DNA of 64,000 nucleotides from Chlorobiota bacterium (GTDB taxonomy: Bacteria; Bacteroidota; Ignavibacteria; OLB7). A program made the position numbers and the translations under genes. Every line of letters begins with the position of its first letter. Positions within the stretch are counted from its first letter, which is position 1. Under the pieces are notes generated by a model. It did not search any database, was not told the origin of the DNA, and worked only from the letters and a program-made list of their open reading frames with translations. This document shows, piece by piece, positions 1,345 to 24,655 of the stretch. The stretch covers positions 1,883,788 through 1,947,787 of the forward strand of contig CP065014.1 in NCBI GenBank assembly GCA_016700335.1. The letters are read 5' to 3'.

Positions 1345-4320
1345 CTATTTAGTAATTAATAATTTACTCAAATATTTATTGTTATTTGAAACCATCATAA
1401 TTGTATAACTTCCACTTGGTAAATCAGAAAGATCAAAAATAAAAGTATTAATTCCCTTCTTGAATATAATTGAATTAACTAACACTTTAACTTCATTCCC
1501 TGTTAAATCATATAAGGAAACATTTATATTTTCATCATTTACGAGTCCTATATAAACTTTAGCAATTCCACTAGTAACTGGATTGGGGAAAGAAGAAGTA
1601 ATGAAATTTGCTGATGCTTTTACACCAAAACTTAGTTTATTGTTGCACCAATCAGAACCTGCTTGAAGAGATAGTAACATGTTAATATTAAACGGTATTA
1701 CATCTTCATTTCCACATGCATCACCAACAATTAGTGTATCAGTTTGTTGATTTAGAGTAGAACCTTGAATACATATTGGAATTCTTACAAATGAATGGGG
1801 TGAAATTGTAATTGGAATAATAGATGGTGGCAAACTATAAACTATATTATTGTTAAATTTTAGAGAAGAAATAATTTTAGATTTACTTCCATAATTAACA
1901 ATTTCAATACTATCAGAACATCTCCAAGTTAATGAATTTAATGTATCTAATTCAACTCCTTTACCAAATCTCAAGCCAACTGAATCTCTAGATTTTGTAT
2001 CTAAAGTTGCTAAAGTAAAACCACTTAATGTATCAGTTTTTGTAGATGTATTCCCTATTTTATCAGTCGTAATAATAGTTACATAACCATCATGATATTT
2101 ATCTTTCAATCTTATATCAACTTTAATTTCATCTGTAGGAAAATCTGATGAGTTTGGCAATACAACTACTTCACAATTTTTTAGAAGACTAAAATTTACA
2201 CTATTAACACCGGTTCCAATTTTTCTTGACTCCGAAACTTGATATGTTAAATTTGATGGGCAAGGAGGAATCAAAGTTTCAATTTTAGGTGGGAGAGTAT
2301 CAACCAAACTTTGTAAAGGGATATTAGCAATCACTCTTTCATTACACAAATTTTTAATTCTTATTTCAGTATTTATCTCAGCCATTCCTAACCATCCACT
2401 TATACAAATAGAATATTTTACCTTCTCACCTGGTTTTAAAGTTATTGGTAAAATTCCTTTTATCTTAATGTTGTTTTGTAATAACGCATTCTTAAGAGTA
2501 TCTGAAATTAATACTTCTGTAATAGTTTGTGGGAAATTTCCATAATTCTCAATCTCAAAATCCCTACAAGTATCATTTGCAGAATTTATAATAATTAAAG
2601 AATCCAAAACAATAGGTGTATTACCATTCATTCCAATTGTCCGCAAAGTGAAGCCAGGTATTGTTTTAAAAAAACTAATCTCCCTTCCTCCTGAATCAAT
2701 TGCTTTAATACCAATTTTACCATCATTATATTTATCAACTAAAGTTGCTTTAAAATAAACTGTATCAATCCCTTTAGAAAAAGCAGGAATAGTAACTTTT
2801 GTATTTTCTTGTGTTAAAACTATAATTGAGTCAATACCAGTATCAGTAATTTTACTATCAAATGCAATACCATCTAAATCTGAACATCTTAAAGAATCCT
2901 CAATTATAGGGGGATAAATATCACCAACTAATTTCCCAAAAACCATACTACCGCTGTAACCATAAGAATTTGCAGCTCCAAAACCATAAATTCCAATTCC
3001 AAATGAAGAATCACAATTAATTATATGCGAACCTTGTTGAACTTCAATTTGAGCATAAAGATAATTTGTTGTTGATACGGGTTTAAATTGGTTCGCATTT
3101 AACTTTTGTCCATCTAAAGTTAAATTTTTCAAACCATCTTTATGAATTGTTATATTAAAAAAATGACGTCTAAATTCTGGATCTATAATACTTTGAAAAA
3201 CATTGATAGAATCCCATTGCTCTATTGGTTGAATAATCATCATAAAAGGATCACCTAAAGCAGTTCCACCACTAAATGGATTTTTATTACTTTCTGCTGA
3301 ATGCTCATATTGGGCAATCAAAACTGGTAAATCTGAACTTATAAAGGAAGAGGCAGTGTATTCTTTCTCTACTGGAATCCCCTTTTGTAGAGGTGTTTGT
3401 ACAACTCCATTTAACTTCCAATTAGTATTATCAAATGCAGATAATATTCTGAAAATTGGTTTAAAAGGAGATGATGGTGTAATTACAAAATGAGGTGTAA
3501 CTATGTAATTTTTTCCCCATGTTTCTAATGGTGGAATTTGTTCACATAAATGATCACGACTTCTACCATCTAATACTGGTATAGATGCTCTTTTAACACC
3601 AGCAAATACTGCAACAGGTTTATTTCCTAAAATCTCAGTTCCACTAACATCTTGTGCATCTTTGTTAATTTCTGCTTGACCAAAGAAGACTTGTCCTTTA
3701 TTCAAATTTACATTAAATGTAGCTCCTTTTTGATTACCATTAATTTTAGCCAGAGGAGAAGAAGTAATTCTTAAAACAGTATTATCAGCAGTAGCAACAA
3801 CTGCAAATTCAGAAGGCGTATCAAAAGTTCCATTATTCCCTTGAATCAAATATCCATTTGAATAAGATAAAACAATATATCGTGGGGTCAGAACTTTTTC
3901 AGGAATTGCAACAAAAGCATCTGCAGATTTATCTCTAATTGATACACCATAAATAGTAATTTCATCATCAGCTTCAACTATTACACTTTTATTACTTACA
4001 CCAGTATTAGAATTATCTAATTCTAGATTAAATGGAATTTTAATTTCAAGTGGAGTATTTACTTGTTGAATATCATAATTGATTGGGGCAGAAAAATTAT
4101 TATTTAAAATAATTTTCAATTTTGTTAATTTGTCGCAAGACGCATATAACCTTAACTTTGAGCCATTAGTATTGCTTCCTAAATTTTCCATAAAAGCAAT
4201 ATAAAATTGCTTCCCTCGAGTATCTGATCTTACTGTTTGTGCTTGAATTAATTGAGAAGTTATAAAGTAAATTGCAATACAAAAAGTTACAATTTTATTA
4301 TAATTAATATAAATTTTCAT
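1345..4320 (-). CDS. Large secreted T9SS-cargo protein: IgGFc-binding-protein-N-terminal-like domain, Ig-like repeats and T9SS C-terminal sorting domain
   Basis: The ATG at 4320 gives the signal peptide MKIYINYNKIVTFCIAIYFITSQLIQAQ; the ORF-track start at 4392 is an upstream in-frame Met. The N-terminal region GKQFYIAFMENLG...YGYSGSMVFG resembles the IgGFc_binding N-terminal domain. There is an internal repeat (LVDKYNDGKIGIKAIDSGG...GFTLRT vs LKDKYHDGYVTIITTDKIG...GFTLAT). The last ~80 aa (FPNPVTSG...LYDLTGNEV...LPSGSYTIMM...KLLITK) look like a T9SS type-A sorting domain. Confidence 0.8.
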   Translation of the reverse strand: MKIYINYNKIVTFCIAIYFITSQLIQAQTVRSDTRGKQFYIAFMENLGSNTNGSKLRLYASCDKLTKLKIILNNNFSAPINYDIQQVNTPLEIKIPFNLELDNSNTGVSNKSVIVEADDEITIYGVSIRDKSADAFVAIPEKVLTPRYIVLSYSNGYLIQGNNGTFDTPSEFAVVATADNTVLRITSSPLAKINGNQKGATFNVNLNKGQVFFGQAEINKDAQDVSGTEILGNKPVAVFAGVKRASIPVLDGRSRDHLCEQIPPLETWGKNYIVTPHFVITPSSPFKPIFRILSAFDNTNWKLNGVVQTPLQKGIPVEKEYTASSFISSDLPVLIAQYEHSAESNKNPFSGGTALGDPFMMIIQPIEQWDSINVFQSIIDPEFRRHFFNITIHKDGLKNLTLDGQKLNANQFKPVSTTNYLYAQIEVQQGSHIINCDSSFGIGIYGFGAANSYGYSGSMVFGKLVGDIYPPIIEDSLRCSDLDGIAFDSKITDTGIDSIIVLTQENTKVTIPAFSKGIDTVYFKATLVDKYNDGKIGIKAIDSGGREISFFKTIPGFTLRTIGMNGNTPIVLDSLIIINSANDTCRDFEIENYGNFPQTITEVLISDTLKNALLQNNIKIKGILPITLKPGEKVKYSICISGWLGMAEINTEIRIKNLCNERVIANIPLQSLVDTLPPKIETLIPPCPSNLTYQVSESRKIGTGVNSVNFSLLKNCEVVVLPNSSDFPTDEIKVDIRLKDKYHDGYVTIITTDKIGNTSTKTDTLSGFTLATLDTKSRDSVGLRFGKGVELDTLNSLTWRCSDSIEIVNYGSKSKIISSLKFNNNIVYSLPPSIIPITISPHSFVRIPICIQGSTLNQQTDTLIVGDACGNEDVIPFNINMLLSLQAGSDWCNNKLSFGVKASANFITSSFPNPVTSGIAKVYIGLVNDENINVSLYDLTGNEVKVLVNSIIFKKGINTFIFDLSDLPSGSYTIMMVSNNNKYLSKLLITK

Positions 4321-4453
4321 TCGTACATTCTTTTTTATGAAATGGAATTGTAAAATAAATGAAACTTTTAGATTATATAAATTAAAATGCAATATTTATC
4401 TAACAAAAGTTATAAATTATAAAATAAATTTTTTAAAATATATTAAGAACAAA

Positions 4454-7179: not shown

Positions 7180-7698
7180 TTGACTGATAACAAGAATATT
7201 TTAGACCAATTTAAAACAAATAAAGGATTTACAATTTATGAAATGTCATTTGTTAAACCAATAATGGTAGTATTTATAAGGCATACTGGATGTTTGTTTT
7301 GCAAAGAGACACTTTCAGATATTAATAAAAATTGGAAAAAGATATTAAAAAATGGTACTGAAATAGTTATTGTGCATCACTCAGACTCTATTTCTTTTCA
7401 AAATTTAATTGAGAAATACAATATTTCAAAGATACCATATATAGTAGACAAAGATAGAATTTTGTATAAAGCTTTAAATCTTAAAGAAGTTACATTTAAA
7501 AATATGATAAACTTGAAAACTATTGTTGGATCATTTAGAGCAATTTTGAATGGTAATTTTCAGACTAAATCTACTGGAAATGAAAAACAATTAGGAGGTG
7601 TATTTTTAATTTTTAAAGGAGAGTTTGTGAAGAAATTTATTTATAATACACCATCAGATAATGTTAATTATTCAGAGTATTCTGTTTGTAATATTTAG
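7180..7698 (+). CDS. AhpC/TSA-like thioredoxin-fold redox protein (peroxiredoxin-like)
   Basis: Thioredoxin-fold CxxC motif in FIRHTGCLFCKE and a conserved QLGGVFL near the C-terminus. TTG start at 7180; the true start is uncertain. Confidence 0.5.
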   Translation: MTDNKNILDQFKTNKGFTIYEMSFVKPIMVVFIRHTGCLFCKETLSDINKNWKKILKNGTEIVIVHHSDSISFQNLIEKYNISKIPYIVDKDRILYKALNLKEVTFKNMINLKTIVGSFRAILNGNFQTKSTGNEKQLGGVFLIFKGEFVKKFIYNTPSDNVNYSEYSVCNI

Positions 7699-7708
7699 AA
7701 CTTTAGAG

Positions 7709-8452
7709 TTAAGGTACTTCGATTCTTTTATTCATTTTATAAGGTTTGCCATCAATTATTATTTCAACTACATAATCACCCATTAATACTTTAACCCCTT
7801 TATCATTCTTCATATCCCAATCAAAAGAATATGATCCAGTGTTCTGATTTGCATCAACTAAATTCCTTATTAAAATTGATGTATGATCATAAATTTTTAC
7901 TGATACTTTTGATTGTTTATTTATCATGTATTTAATTCTTGGTGTTACATCTTCAATTACTCCTAAAAATCTTCCAATTGACCCCATTGAAATAGATAAT
8001 GTAAATGGATACAAAGTAATAGGACGCTTAGAATCCCATCCGTAAAGAGACCTATAAATATCTTCATTTCTTCTTGAAACATCACGAGGGTCTGCTAAAA
8101 TATCTTTAGGATTAAAAGTCAAATTTCTTTTCATAATAGCAAGAGGCGTATTATTTATGCTGTCTAAAAGCTCGATTAATTCTTCTCTTTCAAAAGTAAA
8201 ATCCAATTTTAATTTATCTTTTTCTAATAATCTTTGAAACAATTTTTGTTGGAATAAACTATCTTGTTGTGGTGTGAAATTATTAATAGTATCACCGGTA
8301 GTAGGAATAATAGAATCGGTTTTATATATTCTAGATGTATCTATTAAATTAATATTTATAGAATTAGTAACTATTGTTTGAGAATATATTGTAATATTAA
8401 AAGACAATAAAAGTAAACTTAAAGTTATTACTTTGATAATGAAATTAGTCAA
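7709..8452 (-). CDS. Secreted hypothetical protein with C-terminal FlgD-Ig-like domain
   Basis: Signal peptide ITLSLLLLSFNITIYSQ. The C-terminus VSVKIYDHTSILIRNLVDANQNTGSYSFDWDMKNDKGVKVLMGDYVVEII resembles FlgD Ig-like / T9SS-like beta-sandwich domains. Confidence 0.55.
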   Translation of the reverse strand: MTNFIIKVITLSLLLLSFNITIYSQTIVTNSININLIDTSRIYKTDSIIPTTGDTINNFTPQQDSLFQQKLFQRLLEKDKLKLDFTFEREELIELLDSINNTPLAIMKRNLTFNPKDILADPRDVSRRNEDIYRSLYGWDSKRPITLYPFTLSISMGSIGRFLGVIEDVTPRIKYMINKQSKVSVKIYDHTSILIRNLVDANQNTGSYSFDWDMKNDKGVKVLMGDYVVEIIIDGKPYKMNKRIEVP

Positions 8453-8532: not shown

Positions 8533-10335
8533 TTATTTTACAAAATATCTAAAATTTTCTAGTTTAAATTTCAATTCATTATTTTTTACTAAACCTTCTG
8601 GAAAATATTCACCTTTTGTTGAAATTTCTGATGTTGCGTTTACTTTTATTTTGTTTGGTTTTCCTTCTTTAAAATAAATCTCTATCTTATCTCCAGACAC
8701 TTGTTCAACTCCATTTGGGTTTTCATTATCATACAAATAATAGATGCTACTGGCATATTTGATACAATTCACTTTTCTAATTGTATCACTTTTAATTATA
8801 AAGAATAATGAATCAGCATAAATTTGATCAAACCTATTTTCTAACTTATTCTTCATAACTGTTAGTCCTTTCCCTATAGCATTTATTGAATTGATTTTTT
8901 TGTTAGCTAATCCAATAGAGATAGAGTCAGCACTTATTTGAGAATTTTCATACCAAATAACAGGAATTGATGGTCGAGTATTAGAACAATCTGAGTTAAT
9001 AATTTTCTGCGATATAGAAGAATCTTTGTTCAAAAAATTAGTATCAATTAATTCACCAGTTATAGGTTTGTCTATTAATTTTACTGTATTTTTTGATAAT
9101 ATTATAACACTTTCTTTTACAAAATATTTTCCAATATCGGCAACTGCTTTCATTGAACCTTTTACAATTTTAAAATTTCCATTTCCAATATAGTTTTGGT
9201 TTGTATCATTTTTAAATGATTCAATAGTATCTGCAGTTATAATAGTTGTATCCCCATTTTGTTTACCTGTGGAGCTTTCATTTTTAATTGTTTCAACAAA
9301 TACAATTTTAGGGTTTCCAAATGCTTTTGAATATCCTTCTTTGCTTTTATTTATCATTGTATCACCAGTAATCAATGTATTCTCTTTTTTCAAATACAAT
9401 ACACCATTCCCAGTAATTATTGATTCACCAGTTTTTTTATTGAAATCAATTTTATTTGCATTTATTTTAATGGAATCATTTTCAACTGAAACAATTCCAT
9501 TTAACAAAGCTCTTCCAGTATTTATATCATAATTAATTTCATCAGCATAAGTAATTGTGCCTTTATCATTCATAATTACCTTACCTTTGAAATTTGCTTT
9601 TTTTGTTACATTATCAAATTCTACTTGTTCTGAAATAACGTTCATATTATTATTACTAACTTTTAAATTACCCCTGAAAACTGCTTTATTTGTCAAATTA
9701 TCAATCTCTCCAAAATCGGATGTTAAACTTAACTCTTTGTCAATAAGTACAACATTTCCAGAGAAAAAAGATTTTTTTGTAATAGTATAATAAGTTGCAT
9801 TGTTTGCTGATAAATTAGTAGTACCTTCAGAATAATTAACTCTTCCTTTAAATTCTACTTTTTTATCAATTGATGAATAGTCTGCTTGTGGAGCTTTAAC
9901 AATTGTATTTCCTTGTTTTACTATTACATCATTTAAAAATTTTGCTCTCTTATTATAAGTATTATAAACTCCAGTTTGAGCAGTAATGATAGCATTATCT
10001 TCAGTTAGTGAAATTCCATCAGTACCAGTGGCTAATCTTGTTGATCCATCATAATCTCCATTACCGGCGGTAATAACTAAACCAGGTTGTTCAATTTTTA
10101 CATTTCCATTAAATGTTGCTCTATTTTCTTTTGAAAATAATTTAATTACATCAGATTGAATTTTAACAACACCTTGAATAACAGATACATTTCCAGAAAA
10201 TATTTCTTCACCTGTAATTGCTTTACCAATTAACGAATCTGCATGTAAAAGTTTAATTTTTTGTGATGGTCCAGAAATTTGAGAAAAACATTTAACAATG
10301 CATGAATAAAAAATTATAAAAACAAATAATTTCAA
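8533..10335 (-). CDS. OstA/LptA-like repeat protein (extended OstA_N-type beta-jellyroll)
   Basis: Signal peptide. At least 7 repeats of the OstA-like unit: RATFNGNVKI, KRAKFLNDVIV, KKVEFKGRVNY, KKSFFSGNVVL, NKAVFRGNLKV, KKANFKGKVIM, GRALLNGIVSV. Confidence 0.65.
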   Translation of the reverse strand: MKLFVFIIFYSCIVKCFSQISGPSQKIKLLHADSLIGKAITGEEIFSGNVSVIQGVVKIQSDVIKLFSKENRATFNGNVKIEQPGLVITAGNGDYDGSTRLATGTDGISLTEDNAIITAQTGVYNTYNKRAKFLNDVIVKQGNTIVKAPQADYSSIDKKVEFKGRVNYSEGTTNLSANNATYYTITKKSFFSGNVVLIDKELSLTSDFGEIDNLTNKAVFRGNLKVSNNNMNVISEQVEFDNVTKKANFKGKVIMNDKGTITYADEINYDINTGRALLNGIVSVENDSIKINANKIDFNKKTGESIITGNGVLYLKKENTLITGDTMINKSKEGYSKAFGNPKIVFVETIKNESSTGKQNGDTTIITADTIESFKNDTNQNYIGNGNFKIVKGSMKAVADIGKYFVKESVIILSKNTVKLIDKPITGELIDTNFLNKDSSISQKIINSDCSNTRPSIPVIWYENSQISADSISIGLANKKINSINAIGKGLTVMKNKLENRFDQIYADSLFFIIKSDTIRKVNCIKYASSIYYLYDNENPNGVEQVSGDKIEIYFKEGKPNKIKVNATSEISTKGEYFPEGLVKNNELKFKLENFRYFVK

Positions 10336-10433: not shown

Positions 10434-13296
10434 TAAAAACCAAAAAAGACCTCAAAGAAAAGAAAATCAATTCTCTTTAAGGTCTTTTTCTTATTTCTAT
10501 CCCTTTAATCTACTTCACTACTGTCATCATCTTTGTCTCTGTCCATACTCCCGACTTTATTGTGTAGTAATAATTTCCACTCGGTAAATTTCCTACATCT
10601 ACTGTTAACTCATAATTCCCTGCCTTTTGATCCTCCGATACCAATCTCTGTATCTCTTTTCCCTCCATATTCTGTAACACTATCTCTGTTCTTCCTTCTA
10701 ATCCTATACTGTACTTTATCTTTGTACTAGGATTAAATGGATTTGGGACATTTTGGCTCAGTGTATATGTTCCATTTATTAACTCTATTGCTCGTAAACT
10801 TAACCCACATATTGGATATATATCTATCTTTGTTGTTGATGGATTTATTGTTGTACAACCTTGATTTGTTATGATCTTTACATCTATTTCACGCTCTAAC
10901 TTCTCCGTTAATTGTACATCCATATTGAACTTTAACAACTCTCCTGATGTGGTAAATCCTCCAGGATTCTGTACATCTATTACATAGATGCCTGCTTTGC
11001 TTAAGTTATTCTTTGTATACGATACGCCTGCTCCTCCTATCTGGATACTTGACTCATCTATACTCAACTGTACTGGATCATAATTTATTGTTAACTGTAT
11101 GCTCTTTAAATCCACTAAATTACTAAACCCACCTAACAACGATACTACACAGCCTAACTTCCCGCCTATCTCTCCCTTATTATCCCTTGTGCCTGTTAAC
11201 ACTACTCCACTACTTATTGTCTCTGCATAACTGCTTCCACTTATATCTAATAACATTGGGCTCGTTGGTGTGCCTGCATCATGAGTTACTTCTAGTTTCC
11301 CTACTTCCTTACCTGTTTTGCTTGGACTATACTTTATCCCTATCTGTCGCTTCTCGCCTGGCTTTAATGTGAAACTTGTTACTCCACTTACCAAACTGAA
11401 ATCTCCTGATAAACCTATCAACTTTAACCCTAATACCTTCACATCCTTCTGACCACTATTGCTTACCTCTGCATTTAATATCGTATCCTTTGGTGCACAT
11501 ATATTATCCGCATTCGCTCCTTTCCCAACTATACTCGTTGATAATGAAAATCCATTCCCTGACCACTTTGATGTTGTATCTACTCCATCTAATGTTATTG
11601 CTTTCATTCTTGCTACTCTTTGTCCTACCGCTTTCGCTATGAATGATCCTTTCATTGTATAGGTCGTATTCCCTGGCTTTAATACTATTGGGGTTGCTAA
11701 CTTTACATTTACCACACTCTCACTTGAGCTGTAATCGTTCTCTGGGGTTTGATTACTAAACTCCCACTCTGTTATTGTTACTGAATCTAAATACTGTCCT
11801 ACTGCTTGAAATTCTACATCTCTGATTGTACTTACTGTTGTCCCTACTTCCATTGTTCCATAATCATAATCTTGGGTTATCAACCCTGGACGGGTGCCAA
11901 ATCCATCTAATGTTGATTTTACTCCACTTGGTCCTTGTACCACATTGTAGTTCATCACCATCTGTCTCCCTGCTGTTGTTGTTGGATTAAACTCTACATC
12001 TAAACCTACTGAATCATTCGCTGATATATTTAAATCTGACAATGCATCTAATGTTGTTTGGGGTAATCTGAAATCATTTATATCTCCAGTACTTGCCAAC
12101 AACCCTCTTATTATCGCTGGGGCTGTTCCATAATTCTTTAACATCACTTTTCCTGTATACCATCCTGTCCCTACTCGCTTCCTTCCCCAATCATAATTTG
12201 TTGCTATCAATTGTGGTTGTATTCCCTTTCCTTGCAATATCCCCAAACTATCTACACCTGTTGCATTACTGCTGAATACTATTGTATCTAAATAACTTGC
12301 TACACTTCCTGGACTAAATGTTATTCTTAACGTCTTTGATTCTCCTGGGGCTAAATCAAATGGAAATGCCAACATTCCATCTACTAATTTAAACTCTAGC
12401 TTCTTTGGTCCTTTTGCTCCTGTTACCGTTAGTATCGCATCACTTAATGCTGGATCTATTGGATTTGATACTTCTATTGTATATGCTGGACTTGTTGTAT
12501 TTACTATCAATGTTCCAAAGTCTTTATCTGTTACATTTATCAATGGGGCTCCTACTTTTGCTTTTATCAATGATATGTATTTCTTATTACATTCATTCTC
12601 TATGCCTACTGAATCCTCATACTTCCCATTTGTTGTTGATGTGAATTCTATTTGAGCTACTATGCTTGAGCCTGGATCACCCGCTTTTGATAACGTAAAA
12701 CCGCCTATTGGGCTTAGTATCTTAAATCCTGGCGTATTCCTTTGTAGTTGGATATTCTTTAACTTTACTTCTCGTTCTGCTAAGTTTGTTATTGTTAATT
12801 TCTTTACTACTTTTACGCCTGGAAATAATGTGCCAAAGTTTACTGGGGATGGCGTTATTGTTACATTGAATGCATTATACTGTATTGTATCTATTGTATA
12901 ATTCCCTGCTTGGTCTGATATTATAACTACTGCTTGGGCATTCTGACTTAAATCTATTACTTTCAATGAATACTTTACTTCCCTATCCGTGCCTGGTATG
13001 AAATCTGCTACTGTTATACTATAATTATATGTTGCATCTGGATCTAAATCTATTGTTGATATATTGCTCCTTATTTTACTGTCATCTGGTAAATCTGTTG
13101 TGGTTGCTTCATAGTTTCCAAAACAATCAATTGTATCTTTTATTACTGGTGCATCCTTATCTGGTCTTGACAAATCTCCTACAGCAACTGATAATGGATA
13201 TCCATAACTATCAAAACTTCCAAATCCATATATATATCCTGCAAATGGCTTAGGACCTCTTACTCTGTATGTTCCTGGATTTATTGCTATTGTTTT
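10434..13296. repeat. Copy A of a near-identical 2.86-kb direct repeat (3' UTR/terminator plus 3' two-thirds of the T9SS paralog gene)
   Basis: Matches 14782-17644 at a constant offset of 4348 bp. I found only three substitutions (12817, 13069, 13129). The ORF-track proteins are identical from AINPGTYRVRGPKPF to the C-terminus. Confidence 0.95.
10437..10487 (-). terminator. Rho-independent terminator of T9SS paralog A
   Basis: On the minus strand: AGACCTTAAAG...CTTTGAGGTCT (11-bp stem, one G-U pair) followed by TTTTTT. Lies about 25 nt after the stop at 10510. Duplicated at 14785-14835. Confidence 0.75.
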
Positions 13297-14598
13297 CCCA
13301 ATGTATGTTACCCCATTTATTTTAGTTGGGAACTTTTTAACATCAAATCCAAATTTGCTTGGGAAAGACTCCCATTTATCTGTACCGCCTTGAGCTATTT
13401 CAATGTCATTATAACCAGCAGAATCACATACAAAATTTACATAATTTTTTGGGAAATCAGCTGATGGAGTAGTAAATATTAATTGATTTTGATATTGCTC
13501 AACAGGAGTAAGAACTAACATAAAAGGATCACTTTCTACTCCATCCCAGTTTTGAGAATTATTATATTGAGCTATATAAATAGGTTTATCCCCAGTAAAT
13601 TCTATTAACTCCCTTTTATTATGCAAATAATTAAACCAGCCTTCTCCTTCTTTACCACCTTTTTTAGGTAATTTACCCCAAACAGTACCATTTATTGATA
13701 CTGTTGTGTTATCTTCACCAGCAAAAATTCTATACATATCGGTCTTGATTCTTGTAGCAAATGGAATTGAATGATATAATTTACCCCACGCTGAAACTGG
13801 CAACATCATTTCTTCAATGTGATCACAAGCTGCAAACCGTGCATCAGGTAAATATGTACAATTTTGACCACTCATAACCGCAACAGGCTTACTACTCTGA
13901 ATTAAAGTACCTGTTAAATCTGCCAAAGTAACATCAGATAAAGCCCCAAATACGTCACCTTTATTCATTGAAATATTAAAAGGACCTTTAGAACCACTAT
14001 AATTTGGTAATTTTTGATCTGAAGGTAATGTAATCAAAACATCTGTTTCATCATAAGGAGAAACAATAACAAATTCAGAAGGTAATCTTTGAGTTGTTCC
14101 AATTTCAGCAGCAGATGCAACAAGATATTCTTTACCTAATCCATTTGTTGGAAGAATTAACATACCATCACTTGTAAAAGAAGTTCTGTTCATTCCATAA
14201 ACTACTATTGGTGCAACTGATTCAACATGAATTGCTTTATTTGGATAAACTTCAGCGTTCGGAATAGGAGAATTATCATCCCTTACTGTTCCATATTGAG
14301 CATCTACATTTGAAAGGTCATAAGTTATAATATCATATGGAACTGTAAATAAAGATTTTAATATCTTAGAAGTCCCAATAGAAATAGTAACTTTGGTTCT
14401 AGTACCTGCTGTAATGTACAATCTACAATATTTAATGGTTGCTCCAAATTCCCAATTATGTGGAAATGAAAACCAATAATCTTTGCCAGAATTACTTGGT
14501 CCGAAAGGGATTGATGGTAAGTTCTTACCCCCTTGAGAGAATATAGTTCCATTAAGCAACAAGATAGTTAAAGATACAAAAAGTAATAATTTTTTCAT
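10510..14598 (-). CDS. Giant secreted T9SS-cargo protein, paralog A: IgGFc-binding-N-terminal-like domain, multiple Ig-like (choice-of-anchor-D/PapD-like) repeats, cohesin-like region and T9SS sorting domain
   Basis: Signal peptide MKKLLLFVSLTILLLNGTIFSQ. N-terminal region GKDYWFSFPHNWE...YGYPLSVAVGDL. Repeated units of the form 'FG.l..G......T.tN.g...v.i' (e.g. VNFGTLFPGVKVVKKLTITNLAEREVKLKNIQL). LVDLKSIQLTINYDPVQLSID is cohesin-like. The C-terminus LSQNVPNPFNPSTKIKYSI...LPSGNYYYTIKSG...MMTVVK is a classic T9SS type-A CTD. Confidence 0.85.
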   Translation of the reverse strand: MKKLLLFVSLTILLLNGTIFSQGGKNLPSIPFGPSNSGKDYWFSFPHNWEFGATIKYCRLYITAGTRTKVTISIGTSKILKSLFTVPYDIITYDLSNVDAQYGTVRDDNSPIPNAEVYPNKAIHVESVAPIVVYGMNRTSFTSDGMLILPTNGLGKEYLVASAAEIGTTQRLPSEFVIVSPYDETDVLITLPSDQKLPNYSGSKGPFNISMNKGDVFGALSDVTLADLTGTLIQSSKPVAVMSGQNCTYLPDARFAACDHIEEMMLPVSAWGKLYHSIPFATRIKTDMYRIFAGEDNTTVSINGTVWGKLPKKGGKEGEGWFNYLHNKRELIEFTGDKPIYIAQYNNSQNWDGVESDPFMLVLTPVEQYQNQLIFTTPSADFPKNYVNFVCDSAGYNDIEIAQGGTDKWESFPSKFGFDVKKFPTKINGVTYIGKTIAINPGTYRVRGPKPFAGYIYGFGSFDSYGYPLSVAVGDLSRPDKDAPVIKDTIDCFGNYEATTTDLPDDSKIRSNISTIDLDPDATYNYSITVADFIPGTDREVKYSLKVIDLSQNAQAVVIISDQAGNYTIDTIQYNAFNVTITPSPVNFGTLFPGVKVVKKLTITNLAEREVKLKNIQLQRNTPGFKILSPIGGFTLSKAGDPGSSIVAQIEFTSTTNGKYEDSVGIENECNKKYISLIKAKVGAPLINVTDKDFGTLIVNTTSPAYTIEVSNPIDPALSDAILTVTGAKGPKKLEFKLVDGMLAFPFDLAPGESKTLRITFSPGSVASYLDTIVFSSNATGVDSLGILQGKGIQPQLIATNYDWGRKRVGTGWYTGKVMLKNYGTAPAIIRGLLASTGDINDFRLPQTTLDALSDLNISANDSVGLDVEFNPTTTAGRQMVMNYNVVQGPSGVKSTLDGFGTRPGLITQDYDYGTMEVGTTVSTIRDVEFQAVGQYLDSVTITEWEFSNQTPENDYSSSESVVNVKLATPIVLKPGNTTYTMKGSFIAKAVGQRVARMKAITLDGVDTTSKWSGNGFSLSTSIVGKGANADNICAPKDTILNAEVSNSGQKDVKVLGLKLIGLSGDFSLVSGVTSFTLKPGEKRQIGIKYSPSKTGKEVGKLEVTHDAGTPTSPMLLDISGSSYAETISSGVVLTGTRDNKGEIGGKLGCVVSLLGGFSNLVDLKSIQLTINYDPVQLSIDESSIQIGGAGVSYTKNNLSKAGIYVIDVQNPGGFTTSGELLKFNMDVQLTEKLEREIDVKIITNQGCTTINPSTTKIDIYPICGLSLRAIELINGTYTLSQNVPNPFNPSTKIKYSIGLEGRTEIVLQNMEGKEIQRLVSEDQKAGNYELTVDVGNLPSGNYYYTIKSGVWTETKMMTVVK

Positions 14599-14781
14599 AA
14601 TGAAAATTAATTATATTTATAAATAAAGAGATTAAAATTTAAGATTATTTCTAAATTGATTTTTAATAAAACAAACGATTTTTTTACATATTAATAGAAT
14701 TCAAACATATAAAATATAAATGAATTAAAATTAAATTTTATTGGTAAATAAATAACAATCTCAATCTCAAATTATTACATT

Positions 14782-17644
14782 AAAAAACCAAAAAAGACCT
14801 CAAAGAAAAGAAAATCAATTCTCTTTAAGGTCTTTTTCTTATTTCTATCCCTTTAATCTACTTCACTACTGTCATCATCTTTGTCTCTGTCCATACTCCC
14901 GACTTTATTGTGTAGTAATAATTTCCACTCGGTAAATTTCCTACATCTACTGTTAACTCATAATTCCCTGCCTTTTGATCCTCCGATACCAATCTCTGTA
15001 TCTCTTTTCCCTCCATATTCTGTAACACTATCTCTGTTCTTCCTTCTAATCCTATACTGTACTTTATCTTTGTACTAGGATTAAATGGATTTGGGACATT
15101 TTGGCTCAGTGTATATGTTCCATTTATTAACTCTATTGCTCGTAAACTTAACCCACATATTGGATATATATCTATCTTTGTTGTTGATGGATTTATTGTT
15201 GTACAACCTTGATTTGTTATGATCTTTACATCTATTTCACGCTCTAACTTCTCCGTTAATTGTACATCCATATTGAACTTTAACAACTCTCCTGATGTGG
15301 TAAATCCTCCAGGATTCTGTACATCTATTACATAGATGCCTGCTTTGCTTAAGTTATTCTTTGTATACGATACGCCTGCTCCTCCTATCTGGATACTTGA
15401 CTCATCTATACTCAACTGTACTGGATCATAATTTATTGTTAACTGTATGCTCTTTAAATCCACTAAATTACTAAACCCACCTAACAACGATACTACACAG
15501 CCTAACTTCCCGCCTATCTCTCCCTTATTATCCCTTGTGCCTGTTAACACTACTCCACTACTTATTGTCTCTGCATAACTGCTTCCACTTATATCTAATA
15601 ACATTGGGCTCGTTGGTGTGCCTGCATCATGAGTTACTTCTAGTTTCCCTACTTCCTTACCTGTTTTGCTTGGACTATACTTTATCCCTATCTGTCGCTT
15701 CTCGCCTGGCTTTAATGTGAAACTTGTTACTCCACTTACCAAACTGAAATCTCCTGATAAACCTATCAACTTTAACCCTAATACCTTCACATCCTTCTGA
15801 CCACTATTGCTTACCTCTGCATTTAATATCGTATCCTTTGGTGCACATATATTATCCGCATTCGCTCCTTTCCCAACTATACTCGTTGATAATGAAAATC
15901 CATTCCCTGACCACTTTGATGTTGTATCTACTCCATCTAATGTTATTGCTTTCATTCTTGCTACTCTTTGTCCTACCGCTTTCGCTATGAATGATCCTTT
16001 CATTGTATAGGTCGTATTCCCTGGCTTTAATACTATTGGGGTTGCTAACTTTACATTTACCACACTCTCACTTGAGCTGTAATCGTTCTCTGGGGTTTGA
16101 TTACTAAACTCCCACTCTGTTATTGTTACTGAATCTAAATACTGTCCTACTGCTTGAAATTCTACATCTCTGATTGTACTTACTGTTGTCCCTACTTCCA
16201 TTGTTCCATAATCATAATCTTGGGTTATCAACCCTGGACGGGTGCCAAATCCATCTAATGTTGATTTTACTCCACTTGGTCCTTGTACCACATTGTAGTT
16301 CATCACCATCTGTCTCCCTGCTGTTGTTGTTGGATTAAACTCTACATCTAAACCTACTGAATCATTCGCTGATATATTTAAATCTGACAATGCATCTAAT
16401 GTTGTTTGGGGTAATCTGAAATCATTTATATCTCCAGTACTTGCCAACAACCCTCTTATTATCGCTGGGGCTGTTCCATAATTCTTTAACATCACTTTTC
16501 CTGTATACCATCCTGTCCCTACTCGCTTCCTTCCCCAATCATAATTTGTTGCTATCAATTGTGGTTGTATTCCCTTTCCTTGCAATATCCCCAAACTATC
16601 TACACCTGTTGCATTACTGCTGAATACTATTGTATCTAAATAACTTGCTACACTTCCTGGACTAAATGTTATTCTTAACGTCTTTGATTCTCCTGGGGCT
16701 AAATCAAATGGAAATGCCAACATTCCATCTACTAATTTAAACTCTAGCTTCTTTGGTCCTTTTGCTCCTGTTACCGTTAGTATCGCATCACTTAATGCTG
16801 GATCTATTGGATTTGATACTTCTATTGTATATGCTGGACTTGTTGTATTTACTATCAATGTTCCAAAGTCTTTATCTGTTACATTTATCAATGGGGCTCC
16901 TACTTTTGCTTTTATCAATGATATGTATTTCTTATTACATTCATTCTCTATGCCTACTGAATCCTCATACTTCCCATTTGTTGTTGATGTGAATTCTATT
17001 TGAGCTACTATGCTTGAGCCTGGATCACCCGCTTTTGATAACGTAAAACCGCCTATTGGGCTTAGTATCTTAAATCCTGGCGTATTCCTTTGTAGTTGGA
17101 TATTCTTTAACTTTACTTCTCGTTCTGCTAAGTTTGTTATTGTTAATTTCTTTACTACTTTTACACCTGGAAATAATGTGCCAAAGTTTACTGGGGATGG
17201 CGTTATTGTTACATTGAATGCATTATACTGTATTGTATCTATTGTATAATTCCCTGCTTGGTCTGATATTATAACTACTGCTTGGGCATTCTGACTTAAA
17301 TCTATTACTTTCAATGAATACTTTACTTCCCTATCCGTGCCTGGTATGAAATCTGCTACTGTTATACTATAATTATATGTTGCATCTGGATCTAAATCTA
17401 TTGTTGATATATTGCTTCTTATTTTACTGTCATCTGGTAAATCTGTTGTGGTTGCTTCATAGTTTCCAAAACAATCGATTGTATCTTTTATTACTGGTGC
17501 ATCCTTATCTGGTCTTGACAAATCTCCTACAGCAACTGATAATGGATATCCATAACTATCAAAACTTCCAAATCCATATATATATCCTGCAAATGGCTTA
17601 GGACCTCTTACTCTGTATGTTCCTGGATTTATTGCTATTGTTTT
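14782..17644. repeat. Copy B of the near-identical 2.86-kb direct repeat
   Basis: See copy A; the offset is 4348 bp. Confidence 0.95.
14785..14835 (-). terminator. Rho-independent terminator of T9SS paralog B
   Basis: Sequence identical to the terminator at 10437-10487. Confidence 0.75.
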
Positions 17645-18952
17645 AGCAATGTAAGTAACCCCATTTATTTTAGTTGGAAATCTTTTGAAATCAAATCCAA
17701 ATTTGCTTGGGAAAGACTCCCATTTATCTGTACCGCCTTGAGCTATTTCAATGTCATTATAACCAGCAGAATCACATACAAAATTTACAAAATTTGCTGG
17801 ATAATCAGCTGATGGGGTAGTGAATAACAATTGAGTTTGATATTGCTCAACAGGAGTAAGAACTAACATAAAAGGATCGCTTTCTACTCCATCCCAGTTC
17901 TGAGAATTGTTAATCTGTTGTACATAAATAGGTTTATCTCCAGTAAATTCTATTAATTCTCTTTTATCATGTAAATAACTAAACCAACCTTCACCTTCAT
18001 TCCCACCTTTTTTATTTAAAGTACCCCATTCAGTACCATTTATAAATATTTTAGTATTATCAGCACCAGCAAAAACTCTATAAAGATCTGTTTTTCTTCT
18101 TGTTGCGAAAGGAATTGAATGATATATTTTACCCCAAGCGGTAACTGGTAACATCATTTCTTCAATATGATCACAAGCTGAGTATCTTGGGTCAGGTAAC
18201 CAAGGGCATAAACATCCAGAACAAACTGATATTGGTTTATTAGCAATTATTTTAGTTCCAGAAAAATCTGCATATTGATCAATAGATTGACAAGAAAATC
18301 CATCTCCTTTATTCATTGTAATATTAAAAGGACCATTTTTTCCATTATGATTAGGAGATCTTTGTCCAGAAGGTAATTCAATAGTAATTTCTGTATCATC
18401 AAATGGAGATGATATAACGAATTGAGATGGGAATTTTCCAGCAAAAGCAGATCCCTGTAAATTATCTGGTCCGGCTGCAATAATATATTCTTTTCCGATA
18501 GCATTTGTTGGTAATAACAACATACCATCACTTGTAAACGAAGTTCTGTTCATTCCATAAACTACAATTGGTGCATCAGCTTTTACATAAACAGCTTTAC
18601 CTGGATAAACTTGATCGTCACTTACTGGATCAGTAGTTGAAAATGGAAACATCTGTGCATCTATTGTAGATAAATCATAAGTAACAATATCAAATGGTAC
18701 AGTATAAATTGTTTTCTTATTTTTAGAGCCAATTGCAATTGTTACTTTGGTTCTAACTCCAGCAGTAATATATAACCTACAATACTTAATTGAAGCACCA
18801 TATTCATAATTTGCAGGAAAATTAAAATAATATTCTTTTCCAGAATTTGAAGGTCCGAATGGAATATTTGGTAATGGCTTACCATTTTGAGCAAATGAAA
18901 AACTTAATACAATTAGAAAATTAATTGTAAATAGTAGTAGATTTCTGTACAT
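14858..18952 (-). CDS. Giant secreted T9SS-cargo protein, paralog B (same architecture as paralog A)
   Basis: Signal peptide MYRNLLLFTINFLIVLSFSFAQ. The N-terminal ~437 aa are homologous to paralog A but diverged, with indels. The remaining ~927 aa are identical to A. Confidence 0.85.
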   Translation of the reverse strand: MYRNLLLFTINFLIVLSFSFAQNGKPLPNIPFGPSNSGKEYYFNFPANYEYGASIKYCRLYITAGVRTKVTIAIGSKNKKTIYTVPFDIVTYDLSTIDAQMFPFSTTDPVSDDQVYPGKAVYVKADAPIVVYGMNRTSFTSDGMLLLPTNAIGKEYIIAAGPDNLQGSAFAGKFPSQFVISSPFDDTEITIELPSGQRSPNHNGKNGPFNITMNKGDGFSCQSIDQYADFSGTKIIANKPISVCSGCLCPWLPDPRYSACDHIEEMMLPVTAWGKIYHSIPFATRRKTDLYRVFAGADNTKIFINGTEWGTLNKKGGNEGEGWFSYLHDKRELIEFTGDKPIYVQQINNSQNWDGVESDPFMLVLTPVEQYQTQLLFTTPSADYPANFVNFVCDSAGYNDIEIAQGGTDKWESFPSKFGFDFKRFPTKINGVTYIAKTIAINPGTYRVRGPKPFAGYIYGFGSFDSYGYPLSVAVGDLSRPDKDAPVIKDTIDCFGNYEATTTDLPDDSKIRSNISTIDLDPDATYNYSITVADFIPGTDREVKYSLKVIDLSQNAQAVVIISDQAGNYTIDTIQYNAFNVTITPSPVNFGTLFPGVKVVKKLTITNLAEREVKLKNIQLQRNTPGFKILSPIGGFTLSKAGDPGSSIVAQIEFTSTTNGKYEDSVGIENECNKKYISLIKAKVGAPLINVTDKDFGTLIVNTTSPAYTIEVSNPIDPALSDAILTVTGAKGPKKLEFKLVDGMLAFPFDLAPGESKTLRITFSPGSVASYLDTIVFSSNATGVDSLGILQGKGIQPQLIATNYDWGRKRVGTGWYTGKVMLKNYGTAPAIIRGLLASTGDINDFRLPQTTLDALSDLNISANDSVGLDVEFNPTTTAGRQMVMNYNVVQGPSGVKSTLDGFGTRPGLITQDYDYGTMEVGTTVSTIRDVEFQAVGQYLDSVTITEWEFSNQTPENDYSSSESVVNVKLATPIVLKPGNTTYTMKGSFIAKAVGQRVARMKAITLDGVDTTSKWSGNGFSLSTSIVGKGANADNICAPKDTILNAEVSNSGQKDVKVLGLKLIGLSGDFSLVSGVTSFTLKPGEKRQIGIKYSPSKTGKEVGKLEVTHDAGTPTSPMLLDISGSSYAETISSGVVLTGTRDNKGEIGGKLGCVVSLLGGFSNLVDLKSIQLTINYDPVQLSIDESSIQIGGAGVSYTKNNLSKAGIYVIDVQNPGGFTTSGELLKFNMDVQLTEKLEREIDVKIITNQGCTTINPSTTKIDIYPICGLSLRAIELINGTYTLSQNVPNPFNPSTKIKYSIGLEGRTEIVLQNMEGKEIQRLVSEDQKAGNYELTVDVGNLPSGNYYYTIKSGVWTETKMMTVVK

Positions 18953-19124
18953 TAATATTAGATTTTGTTTAAATGATATGCTTAACTTTTTATTATTTAA
19001 GGTTACTAATAAAATCTAACTAGATTTAAATTAGAAACAATTATATTTTATTAAAAAATATTCATAATAGAATTTTTAAAGACACTCAAAACTATACAAA
19101 AGATTCAAATAATTAAATTAAAAT

Positions 19125-21400: not shown

Positions 21401-21885
21401 TTCGATTTAACTTTTTCATTAGCATTTCTTAATCTTTTGCTAAGCATTTTTATAATACCCTTTGCAACTTCCACCCTTGTATCCATTAATTCAAATAAAT
21501 CTTCTTGATCTAATTTCAATAAGAGTGTATCTGTTATTGTTGTTGCGCTAGCACTTCTAGCTTCAGTATCTAACAAAGACATTTCACCAAAAAGATCTTT
21601 TTCTTTAAGAATAGCAACAACAACTCCACCCTTATGTATTTTAACTTCTCCTTTGAAAATTACATACATACATTGACCAATTTCACCTTCATTAAAGATT
21701 AAGCTATTAGCTTCCAATTCTAGTTCTTCTAAAATTTCACTCACCTCCACTAAAACATTTGTTGGAGTTTCAGAAAAAATGTCTAATGATTTTAAAGTTA
21801 GAATTTTTTCAATTTGTAATAATCTCTCACTTGAATCGCTTTCTTTTTTATGCATTTGAACTAAATTTTTATAATTATTAGGCAA
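21397..21885 (-). CDS. Cyclic-nucleotide-binding (cNMP/CAP-effector) domain protein
   Basis: FNEGEIGQCMYVIFKGEVKIH...LFGEMSLLD..ARSASATT is the canonical cNMP-binding cassette. No DNA-binding HTH follows. The start overlaps the upstream gene's stop by 8 bp. Confidence 0.8.
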   Translation of the reverse strand: MPNNYKNLVQMHKKESDSSERLLQIEKILTLKSLDIFSETPTNVLVEVSEILEELELEANSLIFNEGEIGQCMYVIFKGEVKIHKGGVVVAILKEKDLFGEMSLLDTEARSASATTITDTLLLKLDQEDLFELMDTRVEVAKGIIKMLSKRLRNANEKVKSN

Positions 21886-24655
21886 TACTCATTGCAGTCT
21901 CTTTAATTAAATTATCACTACTTAAAGTTAAGAAATCTATATACTCATTTTTATTATTCCCATGATATTCGTTTAGAGAATAAGTACATGCTGCTTTAGT
22001 CCATCTATCAAAAAAATATATTTCATCATAAATTATGATTTGGAATATATCATTTTCTGTATATGATGAATTTGATTTATCATTAAATTTCAAACTTTTA
22101 ATTTTCATATCATTAGGTTCAAATAATTCAATAAATCTTAGAGAAATATCTTTATCAACTTCAATTTCAAAAACTTCTAATGCATTTGCAATTGTATCCT
22201 TTTTATTGTAATGAAAAGCAGTTCTAACTTTTTTTATTTTATTAGAATCATAAATGAATGATAGTATTAATAATAATACTTCTCTTAATTTTTCTAATTC
22301 ATATACCAATGCGTCTAACAGATGATGCATTCCATCAGTTTGAGAAAGGAAATTTATCATATTAGTAATTTTAGTAGCAACATTTAAAGACTCTTGAATT
22401 AAATCATTAAAAAATAATTTATTATCTTCTTTAACTCTAAAATCAGTTATATGGAGAGCTTGTAAAATAGTATATCTATTTACTTTATCAAATTTTAAAT
22501 GTTCTAATAATACCTTAATAGATAAACTTGAATTAATATTCCCAAGAATGTAAATTAATTTTTGGTTTTGATTCTGAGTTAATGTATTTATATATAATAT
22601 CTTTTTAATTTCAACAACAGAATTATCACCTCCATTAATCAATGCATCGATACATATTTTTTCATATTTAATATCTTTAAATAATTTAACTACTTTTTCA
22701 ATTAAATACTTGTTTTTAATTTTACCACATGCAATTATACTTTCTTTCACAACTATAAATTCTTCATCATTTAAAAGTTTTAAAATTGGTTTGTAAAATG
22801 AATTTGTTTTTAAATCTCCTATAATTTCAGCTGCAGTTTTTCTTATTATAGTATAAGGTGAATTTATCATTTCAATTAATTTTTGTCCAGCAACTACAAT
22901 TGCAGATATTCCACCACTACTCATCAAACCGATAATAGCAGATTTTGATAATTCTATATTATCAGAATTCACATAAATTTCTGATTCATCAACATTTTCA
23001 GGTGTAAGCAAACAAATCGACTTTATTAAATCTGGGAGTATAAATAAATATGATTCATCATTTATCATTTTATTAATTAAAGGAACAGCATTAATTAATT
23101 TTAAATGAGTTATCAAAGCAATACTTTCTCTAATAACAATTTCATTTTTATTTTCTAACCCAGCAAGAACAATCTCAGATAATTCTGGTGTGAACCTTTT
23201 GCCTACTATGTTTAAAGTATGCATAGCTTCAGATTGATCACCAAATTTTACTTTTTCTAAAAAAACTGATTTTGTTCTCTCATTAGTAATATCTAGTTCT
23301 GATCCAAAGGAATATCGTTTGCTAATTGCTTTAACTAAAGTTCTAACATATTCATTTTCAATTAAAAATATTATCAGAATCCATACAATAATAAATACAA
23401 CTATTAAACCACTTAAGGCAATTATATTAAGTCCTTCATCGCTTGTTCCTTTTGTAAAATGAACGAATAGAAAAGAAATTATACCACTAAATACTAAAGC
23501 AAAAGGATCTACAACACCTTTAACAACAGCATGACTTTTAAGTCTTAGTTGCAAAGAAAGTGGCTGCATCATTGACAAAAAAACTGGATCTTGTATAGAT
23601 GTTTTAAGCATTTCAGATAAAACAGCTGCTAATCCAAACAAATATAAAGTTGAAGTAATTGAATTGTTATTACTTAATAATGAGTTTATTAAAATGTATC
23701 CTAAAATTAATATTAGAATAATTGGAGATATTAATAATGAGAATTTTAAACCAATTCTGTTCATTACTCTACCAGTTAGAACTAATCTTATTAATAATGC
23801 TAAAAGCCTACCAAGTGCAAAAAATTTACTTATAAATCCAGCAAGTTCAATATCTGTGTGAGAATGATGTTTTACTTCAACATAAAAACCAAAATTTATT
23901 AATGTAACAATTGTTATAATTATAAATGATAAAATTGATAAGTATTTTATTAGTTTATTGACAAAAAAATCTGATAATGAAAATGACCCTAATAAATCAG
24001 TGGTACCATGTTCCAATTTAATTTTATTATGATGTACATGTTTTACTTCAATGTCTAACTTACCAGCTTTATCTAAATTTCTGCAAACAAAAAAAGAAGA
24101 CAAAATGAAAAATGATGATACATATAATGCATTTTCTGTTGAAACATAATGCAATAATATTGGAACTACAGAATACCCAATTAATTTTGCAGGAATATCT
24201 CCTGCACCAATAATACCAAACAATCTTTTACTTTGCCTTATATCAAAAGTCAATGCTGCAACTCCCCAAAATTCTAAATTATTTAAAAGGTAAATTGCAT
24301 AATACCAACAGAACATAAAAAAAATGACCCAGGGAGATTGGTCATAAATTAAAAAGAATCTTAAAAGCAAAATACTAAATCCCATAAAGAGAATTACCCC
24401 TGGAGCAGTTTTCTTAACTGGCAATTTATGTTCTATTTTAGTATAAAAATATCCTATAACAAGCAACAAAGCACCTGAAACTACATAAACATTTGAAAGT
24501 AATGATGGTTGAAATCTATTAAGAAATAATGTTAAAGCGATTGTATTAAAAACAGCTACTCCTATTCCTTGTAACAATTGAAGTAAGAAAAATCTTGATA
24601 CAAGGAATACCTCATCATCATGAATATTTAACAATTGTAAAATTCTTTTTTTCAT
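21878..24655 (-). CDS. Multi-pass membrane protein (ATP/ADP-translocase/MFS-like, ~12 TM) fused to a HEAT-repeat cytoplasmic domain
   Basis: The N-terminal ~430 aa are hydrophobic helices resembling the TLC/Npt-type MFS fold. Residues ~470-720 show HEAT/PBS-lyase-like repeats (AGLENKNEIVIRESIALITHL; SPYTIIRKTAAEIIGDL; LLNDEEFIVVKESIIACGKI). The C-terminal ~200 aa are unassigned. Confidence 0.55.
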   Translation of the reverse strand: MKKRILQLLNIHDDEVFLVSRFFLLQLLQGIGVAVFNTIALTLFLNRFQPSLLSNVYVVSGALLLVIGYFYTKIEHKLPVKKTAPGVILFMGFSILLLRFFLIYDQSPWVIFFMFCWYYAIYLLNNLEFWGVAALTFDIRQSKRLFGIIGAGDIPAKLIGYSVVPILLHYVSTENALYVSSFFILSSFFVCRNLDKAGKLDIEVKHVHHNKIKLEHGTTDLLGSFSLSDFFVNKLIKYLSILSFIIITIVTLINFGFYVEVKHHSHTDIELAGFISKFFALGRLLALLIRLVLTGRVMNRIGLKFSLLISPIILILILGYILINSLLSNNNSITSTLYLFGLAAVLSEMLKTSIQDPVFLSMMQPLSLQLRLKSHAVVKGVVDPFALVFSGIISFLFVHFTKGTSDEGLNIIALSGLIVVFIIVWILIIFLIENEYVRTLVKAISKRYSFGSELDITNERTKSVFLEKVKFGDQSEAMHTLNIVGKRFTPELSEIVLAGLENKNEIVIRESIALITHLKLINAVPLINKMINDESYLFILPDLIKSICLLTPENVDESEIYVNSDNIELSKSAIIGLMSSGGISAIVVAGQKLIEMINSPYTIIRKTAAEIIGDLKTNSFYKPILKLLNDEEFIVVKESIIACGKIKNKYLIEKVVKLFKDIKYEKICIDALINGGDNSVVEIKKILYINTLTQNQNQKLIYILGNINSSLSIKVLLEHLKFDKVNRYTILQALHITDFRVKEDNKLFFNDLIQESLNVATKITNMINFLSQTDGMHHLLDALVYELEKLREVLLLILSFIYDSNKIKKVRTAFHYNKKDTIANALEVFEIEVDKDISLRFIELFEPNDMKIKSLKFNDKSNSSYTENDIFQIIIYDEIYFFDRWTKAACTYSLNEYHGNNKNEYIDFLTLSSDNLIKETAMSIA

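Follow-up and report, generated by a model that had tools for sequence, protein, structure and literature searches.

In the cassette systems of Neisseria (pilE/pilS) and Borrelia (vlsE), silent promoterless cassettes donate variable segments of surface proteins to one expression site, creating diversity. In Helicobacter pylori, the 3' segments of babA/babB and of homA/homB evolve in concert via intragenomic recombination while other segments diverge (Pride and Blaser 2002, cited in PMC2795765), the KLIKK proteases of Tannerella forsythia are described as having unique N-terminal parts and a C-terminal domain (CTD) that is almost the same in all of them (PMC4404884), and in Porphyromonas gingivalis identical adhesin repeats are common to the genes hagA, rgpA and kgp and defeat automated short-read assembly (PMC5266723). 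Here we analysed a stretch of 64,000 nucleotides (hereafter the window; GCA_016700335.1, contig CP065014.1, positions 1,883,788 to 1,947,787) from an AT-rich uncultured Kapaibacterium (~27-28% GC; 'Chlorobi/Chlorobiota bacterium' in its sources), in which two tandem paralogs, genes A and B, encode putative cargo proteins of the type IX secretion system (T9SS) and are almost identical in their 3' part, terminator included, while their 5' parts, which encode the protein heads, have diverged. The pattern is explained best, and in our view probably correctly, by repeated homologous gene conversion between the two paralogs.

The features concerned are given below; pS denotes the proportion of synonymous differences between the two genes (Nei-Gojobori counts).

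10510..14598, minus strand: gene A, open reading frame (ORF) of 1362 amino acids (aa); the exact protein is also present on six short-read contigs
14858..18952, minus strand: gene B, ORF of 1364 aa; tandem paralog of A, with orientation and architecture as in A
10435..13296, minus strand: homogenised block, A copy; codons 435-1362, the stop codon and 75 nucleotides (nt) of 3' untranslated region (UTR); over 10435-12816 its identity with the B copy is 100%
14783..17644, minus strand: homogenised block, B copy, from the comparison at constant offset
10435..10490, minus strand: intrinsic terminator of A, a stem of 20 base pairs (bp) and a U-run; the last bases of the block, the identity of A and B ending directly past it
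14783..14838, minus strand: intrinsic terminator of B, identical, from sequence and folding
13297..13518, minus strand: transition zone of A, codons ~361-434, with intermediate pS (0.20)
17645..17866, minus strand: transition zone of B, from sequence comparison
13519..14598, minus strand: diverged head of A, codons 1-360, pS 0.46-0.65, with indels relative to B
17867..18952, minus strand: diverged head of B, from sequence comparison
14599..14782, minus strand: upstream region of A, a unique intergenic spacer that cannot be aligned with the upstream region of B
18953..19124, minus strand: upstream region of B, unique, from sequence comparison

Compared base by base at a constant offset of 4348, the stretches 10435-13296 and 14783-17644 differ at exactly three positions (12817 G/A, 13069 C/T and 13129 A/G), each of them a synonymous change at a third codon position (Gly594/596, Arg510/512 and Ile490/492). 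A first-pass annotation of the window had reported the same offset and the same three silent substitutions, and both stand, whereas the block limits it gave (10434-13296 and 14782-17644) start one base too early, 10434 being already a T/A mismatch. It had correctly placed the first mismatches beyond the other end, on the 5' side in the sense of the genes, at 13297-13298 (TTTTCCCA versus TTTTAGCA on the plus strand), and had rightly counted the stop codon, the 3' UTR and the terminator hairpin as part of the block. The hairpin has a predicted free energy of -26.4 kcal/mol (z = -3.9 versus shuffled sequences), and identity stops where the flanks were never homologous. In the protein, the block takes in the final 25 residues of the head domain as well as the entire stalk and the sorting signal, 928 shared residues in all. 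Its divergence amounts to three of 2862 bases (0.1%) versus 330 of 1298 aligned bases (25%) in the heads, a contrast far beyond chance. All three block differences are confined to the 480 nt at its 5' end, the other 2382 nt being free of them (p ~0.005), and the tracts therefore appear to be nested.

Synonymous divergence falls stepwise toward the 3' end of the genes, as the following values of pS show.

Codons 1-120: pS 0.645
Codons 121-360: pS 0.458
Codons 361-440: pS 0.199
Homogenised block: pS 0.005

Adjacent tiers differ (Fisher p = 0.008, 0.0014 and 5e-10, respectively), and the total drop across the boundary of the block, which holds 620 synonymous sites, is about 100-fold. Since silent divergence has so wide a range, a duplication of one age is ruled out, and the uneven divergence bears out the first-pass annotation, in which a single old duplication had been judged inadequate. 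Moreover, the non-coding 3' UTR and the terminator are identical as well, which selection at the protein level cannot explain. The two proteins are identical from about aa 436 (A) and 438 (B) onwards and ~65% identical before, with substitutions and indels, in keeping with the earlier description of the N-terminal ~435 aa and with the lengths it gave for the two proteins. The transition zone of A is a mosaic, in which nine differences within the 45 nt of 13297-13341 are followed by 100 identical bases (13342-13441) and then by a second dense patch. In the heads, the ratio of nonsynonymous to synonymous divergence (dN/dS) has a mean of 0.33 and a peak of ~0.7 around codons 160-240; positive selection on the heads was considered and rejected, as no window of codons has dN/dS above 1.

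According to the mechanism that we favour, an old duplication of a whole gene unit ending just past the terminator would have produced the tandem paralogs A and B, after which homologous recombination of the RecA type would repeatedly have overwritten the 3' part of one copy with that of its partner. The transfer would be non-reciprocal, that is, interlocus gene conversion. The 3' limit of the tracts would be fixed at the end of homology, which is the end of the terminator and of the duplicated unit, while their 5' ends would be variable and would seldom lie inside the heads. Tracts reaching into the heads may be rare or selected against, either as the heads have diverged in function or as ~25% divergence prevents strand exchange. 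The outcome would be concerted evolution of the stalk, which is immunoglobulin (Ig)-like, and of the T9SS sorting signal, with heads evolving independently. From the pattern of divergence we infer the recombination mechanism, the donor copy and direction of transfer, and the reason why the heads are spared. Recent conversion of the C-terminal stalk and sorting module, one of two options put forward in the first-pass annotation, thus gains support from the ~100-fold fall of pS (0.005 in the block versus 0.20-0.65 in the heads), from identity that continues into non-coding sequence and through the terminator, and from recurrence in independent lineages (L037 and L051/L053, more weakly L038; see below). 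The process at this locus conserves the tail and does not diversify the head.

Relatives were collected by a scan of one genome per species, which returned 78 loci, at which family members often stand in tandem arrays. The nearest proteins outside the own species are at most 47% identical, and orthologous tails in other species have ~45% protein identity. In favour of conversion, the protein database contained no version of A or B with an unhomogenised tail in the range from 47% to 100% identity. Flanking synteny with the nearest relatives is not conserved. The nearest relatives have a short paralog upstream and a long one downstream in tandem; the idea that A and B are their orthologs was tried and dropped, both heads being about equally similar to each of them. 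The comparison with related genomes that the first-pass annotation had proposed revealed the same tail homogenisation in two genomes whose copies are ~30% identical (aa) to A. On the complete chromosome OZ123195.1 (L037), tandem copies have six differing sites over 12386-14336, and the near-identical tract extends 64 nt past the stop codon; the middle is a mosaic, and the heads diverge in a graded manner. In CP058732.1, a complete genome, the copies are dispersed (L051 at 0.27 Mb and L053 at 1.29 Mb) and have in common a 2723-nt tail, which shows ten differences and stops at the stop codon, while their heads are 65-75% identical. A further locus, L038, holds 2471 identical bases at a contig end. 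The multi-copy loci L056, L025, L011 and L022 are without the pattern, and L033 displays a gradient only. The combination of diverged heads and identical tails is recurrent in two distant Kapaibacteria lineages and is not universal. Separately, self-BLAST of a Lac Pavin Kapaibacterium contig (L085) detected a tandem repeat array with a period of ~39 bp at 375-720, upstream of family genes.

The tails also stand out in base composition. Their GC content at third codon positions (GC3) is 0.257 in both genes, compared with 0.161 and 0.126 in the heads and 0.154 +/- 0.023 in 30 other genes of the window, which places the tails ~4 standard deviations above the mean; GC3 is as high as 0.30-0.32 in codons 900-1200, and the heads are at background. 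An excess in the tail is found in L037, L038, L051 and L053 as well. The difference between tail and head GC3 is +0.06 to +0.19 in the homogenised lineages versus a mean of 0.000 in 46 other family genes of whatever partner status (Mann-Whitney p = 0.0018 by lineage; the contrast is a correlation over four lineages). GC-biased gene conversion is a hypothesis that has been proposed for bacteria, and the raised tail GC3 hints at its signature. We suggest tentatively, as a possibility rather than a probability, that tail-specific concerted evolution recurs across the T9SS proteins of Kapaibacteria with IgGFc_binding heads, in tandem and in megabase-apart copies, and leaves a signature of GC-biased conversion, with GC3 raised only in the homogenised tails of very AT-rich genomes. 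If true, this would provide a rare within-genome readout of GC-biased conversion in bacteria at the level of paralogs, and it would suggest selection for identical stalks, e.g. in paralogs that share one attachment or assembly partner at the cell surface. If the GC3 excess holds, the family could serve to test GC-biased conversion, with the head and tail of one gene as internal controls. As an observation in its own right, the closest homologues of A and B (42-47% aa identity, L011-L026) belong to Kapaibacteria with a GC3 of 0.65-0.92 versus ~0.15 here, a very wide range within one protein family and class.

Gene conversion has to be weighed against other explanations. In one of them, the assembler would have turned a single gene, or two alleles from co-existing strains, into two genes in tandem whose tail is one consensus given twice. 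Short-read assemblers do mishandle the locus: one contig (L004) is a cyclic path from the A head through the tail to the spacer, the three marker single-nucleotide polymorphisms are phased at random or in inconsistent combinations among contigs, and the patch at 13297-13341, beside which the 100 identical bases exceed typical k-mers, is swapped reciprocally between contigs of one study. However, two separately assembled single-contig genomes agree in the tandem arrangement and in the three copy-specific differences, namely one of 3,152,895 bp that encodes the exact A and B proteins and the closed GCA_016722625.1 (L010; 3,138,347 bp), which matches 17.6 kb of the window at 99.93%. In addition, the short-read contigs L001-L009 from several samples and studies cover all four junctions, L007 and L008 (SPAdes contigs) running from the LolA flank through the entire gene B and the spacer into the A head, and L001-L003 and L009 extending from the spacer across A to the downstream flank. 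A junction of spacer and tail is possible only in a tandem arrangement, and the copies are not perfectly identical, as duplicates of a single consensus would be expected to be. The tandem pair, present in two closed genomes, is real, and an artefact of assembly is very improbable. A second, unlikely alternative holds that a recent whole-gene tandem duplication was followed by the replacement of one head by an imported diverged allele, a relative of the second option in the first-pass annotation, the shuffling of different heads onto a common module. Such an import would fit the locally sharp boundary, where the nine differences of 13297-13341 adjoin a block of 0.1% divergence, and the mosaic patches of the transition zone could be recombination scars. 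Yet in a tree that comprises 94 heads, those of A and B (65% identical) come out as sisters, a foreign donor of the B head was searched for among 5.8 billion proteins and none was found (the best match of this head alone being 52% identical, and that of A 47-49%), and neither head is specifically orthologous to one of the relatives' paralogs, so that no imported head is indicated. Furthermore, the divergence is graded across 1.3 kb and not uniform, the two upstream regions cannot be aligned with each other and the duplication is therefore not recent there, and a recent tandem duplication is hard to reconcile with the dispersed pair, whose members are 1 Mb apart. Head shuffling fails on the same sisterhood of the heads and on the presence of only two full-length copies.

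A duplication of uniform age without conversion, in which the tail is kept by extreme purifying selection, would agree with the structural and secretion functions of the tail and with the protein alignment across species, where the tail is no less conserved than the head; it is effectively refuted, however, by the 100-fold contrast between head and tail at synonymous sites, and the identity of the non-coding 3' UTR and the mere ~45% protein identity of orthologous tails, which are thus not intrinsically frozen, speak against it as well, leaving it with hardly any probability. Programmed diversification of the heads by cassette antigenic variation, a shufflon or a diversity-generating retroelement, to which the cassette-like diversification envisaged in the first-pass annotation belongs, would suit surface-exposed proteins with variable N-terminal domains and head windows that reach a dN/dS of ~0.7. 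Instead of one expression locus with silent promoterless donors, though, the window has two complete genes, each with an upstream region and a terminator of its own, no silent cassettes, and a sole other paralog (1345-4392) that is 26% identical. No recombinase, invertase, transposase or reverse transcriptase was found among the genes within ~10 kb on either side, which are housekeeping genes (LolA, a BrkB/YihY protein, an HD protein, an LptD_N/OstA-like protein, AhpC, TGT, TatC and others). The differences extend over 1.3 kb, their spectrum in the heads is mixed, in line with the AT-rich composition and unlike that of adenine-specific mutagenesis, and dN/dS does not exceed 1 in any window of codons. 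Programmed diversification is accordingly extremely unlikely, and the cassette-like interpretation is not supported.

Several points weigh against repeated gene conversion between A and B, or against parts of that interpretation. The heads of A and B group by genome in the head tree, and there are no A-type or B-type orthologs among the 78 related loci, whereas discordance does occur elsewhere in the family, where grouping by ortholog is seen for L033 and L043 (upstream versus downstream copies) and for L011 and L018 (short versus long paralogs). No outgroup places A-type and B-type heads before a speciation, the nearest sampled species being ~45% identical, and for this reason the age of the duplication is drawn from the synonymous divergence of the heads only. 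In L037, the second copy has many 1-bp indels, and L038 is a weak case, as its assembly could contain a collapsed repeat in duplicate. Biased conversion need not be the cause of the higher GC3 in the tails, and the direction and number of conversion events come from deduction rather than observation. Finally, the population variants P0127, P0129 and P0131 were considered as natural recombinants with variable tract end points and rejected, given the inconsistent phasing of the polymorphisms and the reciprocal swap of the patch; they are most likely assembler chimeras and thus no evidence for variable tract ends. For metagenomics, the lesson is that short-read assemblies of this locus yield chimeric "variants" resembling recombinants and that closed genomes alone are reliable here. 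In one of these, GCA_016722625.1, the annotation splits gene B into pieces of 570 and 686 aa (regions 7352-7700 and ~9743); the 1-bp deletions relative to the window are located in GGG and AAAAA homopolymer runs, and the fragmentation probably reflects long-read consensus error and not pseudogenisation.

Both proteins consist of a hydrophobic leader (putative signal peptide), an IgGFc_binding head, an Ig-like stalk and a sorting domain, in this order. The N-termini have a hydrophobic stretch ending in SQ or AQ, and in the structure model residues 2-15 form a helix, after which comes a disordered linker. The IgGFc_binding domain PF17517 covers aa 144-458 (E = 1e-57), the stalk comprises four choice-of-anchor D Ig-like stretches (NF012200), and the T9SS type A C-terminal sorting domain lies at aa 1285-1355 or 1285-1356. 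With 29.6 bits (A) and 29.0 bits (B) for Por_Secre_tail (PF18962; cut-off 27) and 23.3 for TIGR04183 (cut-off 23), the predicted sorting domains just pass as those of T9SS type A cargo, and the label of T9SS cargo given at first pass is retained. Genes for the T9SS machinery are likely present in the source genome, judging from its lineage (Kapaibacteria, Bacteroidota) and the many CTD-bearing homologues. The AlphaFold model of residues 1-563 is all-beta and confident (predicted local distance difference test, pLDDT, 88.9). A Foldseek comparison of the head model with the PDB gave spurious matches only (template modelling score, TM, ~0.1), and assignment of a head function by fold was dropped despite the confident model; the head is an all-beta PF17517 domain, and the all-beta heads are presumably the ligand-binding parts. 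Each gene has its own start codon and terminator and an upstream spacer (184 bp in A, 172 bp in B). These two spacers resemble each other no more than shuffled sequence does, and a scan for sigma-70 promoters yielded fewer matches than in shuffles, this consensus being uninformative for a Bacteroidota-type lineage.

Further genes of the window deserve mention. At 1345-4392 (minus strand) lies the third, distant family member (~1015 aa), whose PF17517-type head shares the above 26% identity with A over residues 38-492 and whose counterpart in the sister genome is a 991-aa gene with IgGFc_binding and Por_Secre_tail; at least one further IgGFc-binding paralog is encoded in the source genome beyond the window (P0090, 1247 aa). 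Directly downstream of A, 8533-10335 (minus strand) encodes a 600-aa protein with OstA/LptD_N/LptC-like domains in which no LptD barrel was detected, and beside it 7709-8452 (minus strand) encodes a 247-aa protein with an FlgD Ig-like domain, of a kind frequent at the C-termini of T9SS-type proteins. The 925-aa ORF at 21878-24655 (minus strand) combines a major facilitator superfamily transporter region with HEAT repeats, an unusual fusion that is conserved in the sister genome.

The locus represents a clean, well-bounded case of segmental concerted evolution in an uncultured lineage (activated-sludge Kapaibacteria), in which the secretion and stalk module stays uniform and the exposed heads are free to diverge. 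With the cassette systems of Neisseria and Borrelia it would have in common non-reciprocal homologous recombination between surface-protein paralogs, but here it is the conserved part that would be copied, both genes are complete and silent copies are not present. In the KLIKK proteases, the common CTD ends a C-terminal extension on unrelated protease domains, whereas here 928 residues of stalk and CTD are common to two proteins whose heads are homologous; neither "recombination" nor "duplication" occurs in the passages of PMC4404884 that were searched. The trouble with short-read assembly is like that at hagA, rgpA and kgp of P. gingivalis, where, however, the adhesin domains are internally repeated and the stress is on domain rearrangement and allelic exchange between strains, as opposed to one contiguous 3' tract between two paralogs. 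The closest likeness in polarity is to the H. pylori bab and hom genes (PMC2795765): in both cases, surface-protein paralogs of one genome are homogenised in the 3' anchoring or structural part and diverge in the exposed 5' or middle part. They differ in phylum and in protein type, an autotransporter-like outer-membrane beta-barrel (Hop) there versus a T9SS C-terminal sorting domain here. Moreover, the H. pylori copies are dispersed, conversion there also swaps expression loci and has been shown experimentally, while at our locus the copies are in tandem, the tract takes in the terminator and conversion is deduced from sequence comparison. Thus segmental concerted evolution of surface-protein paralogs is already known and is here found in a new group, to which the locus adds a very clean boundary structure, recurrence in distant Kapaibacteria including a dispersed pair, and a possible signature of biased conversion.

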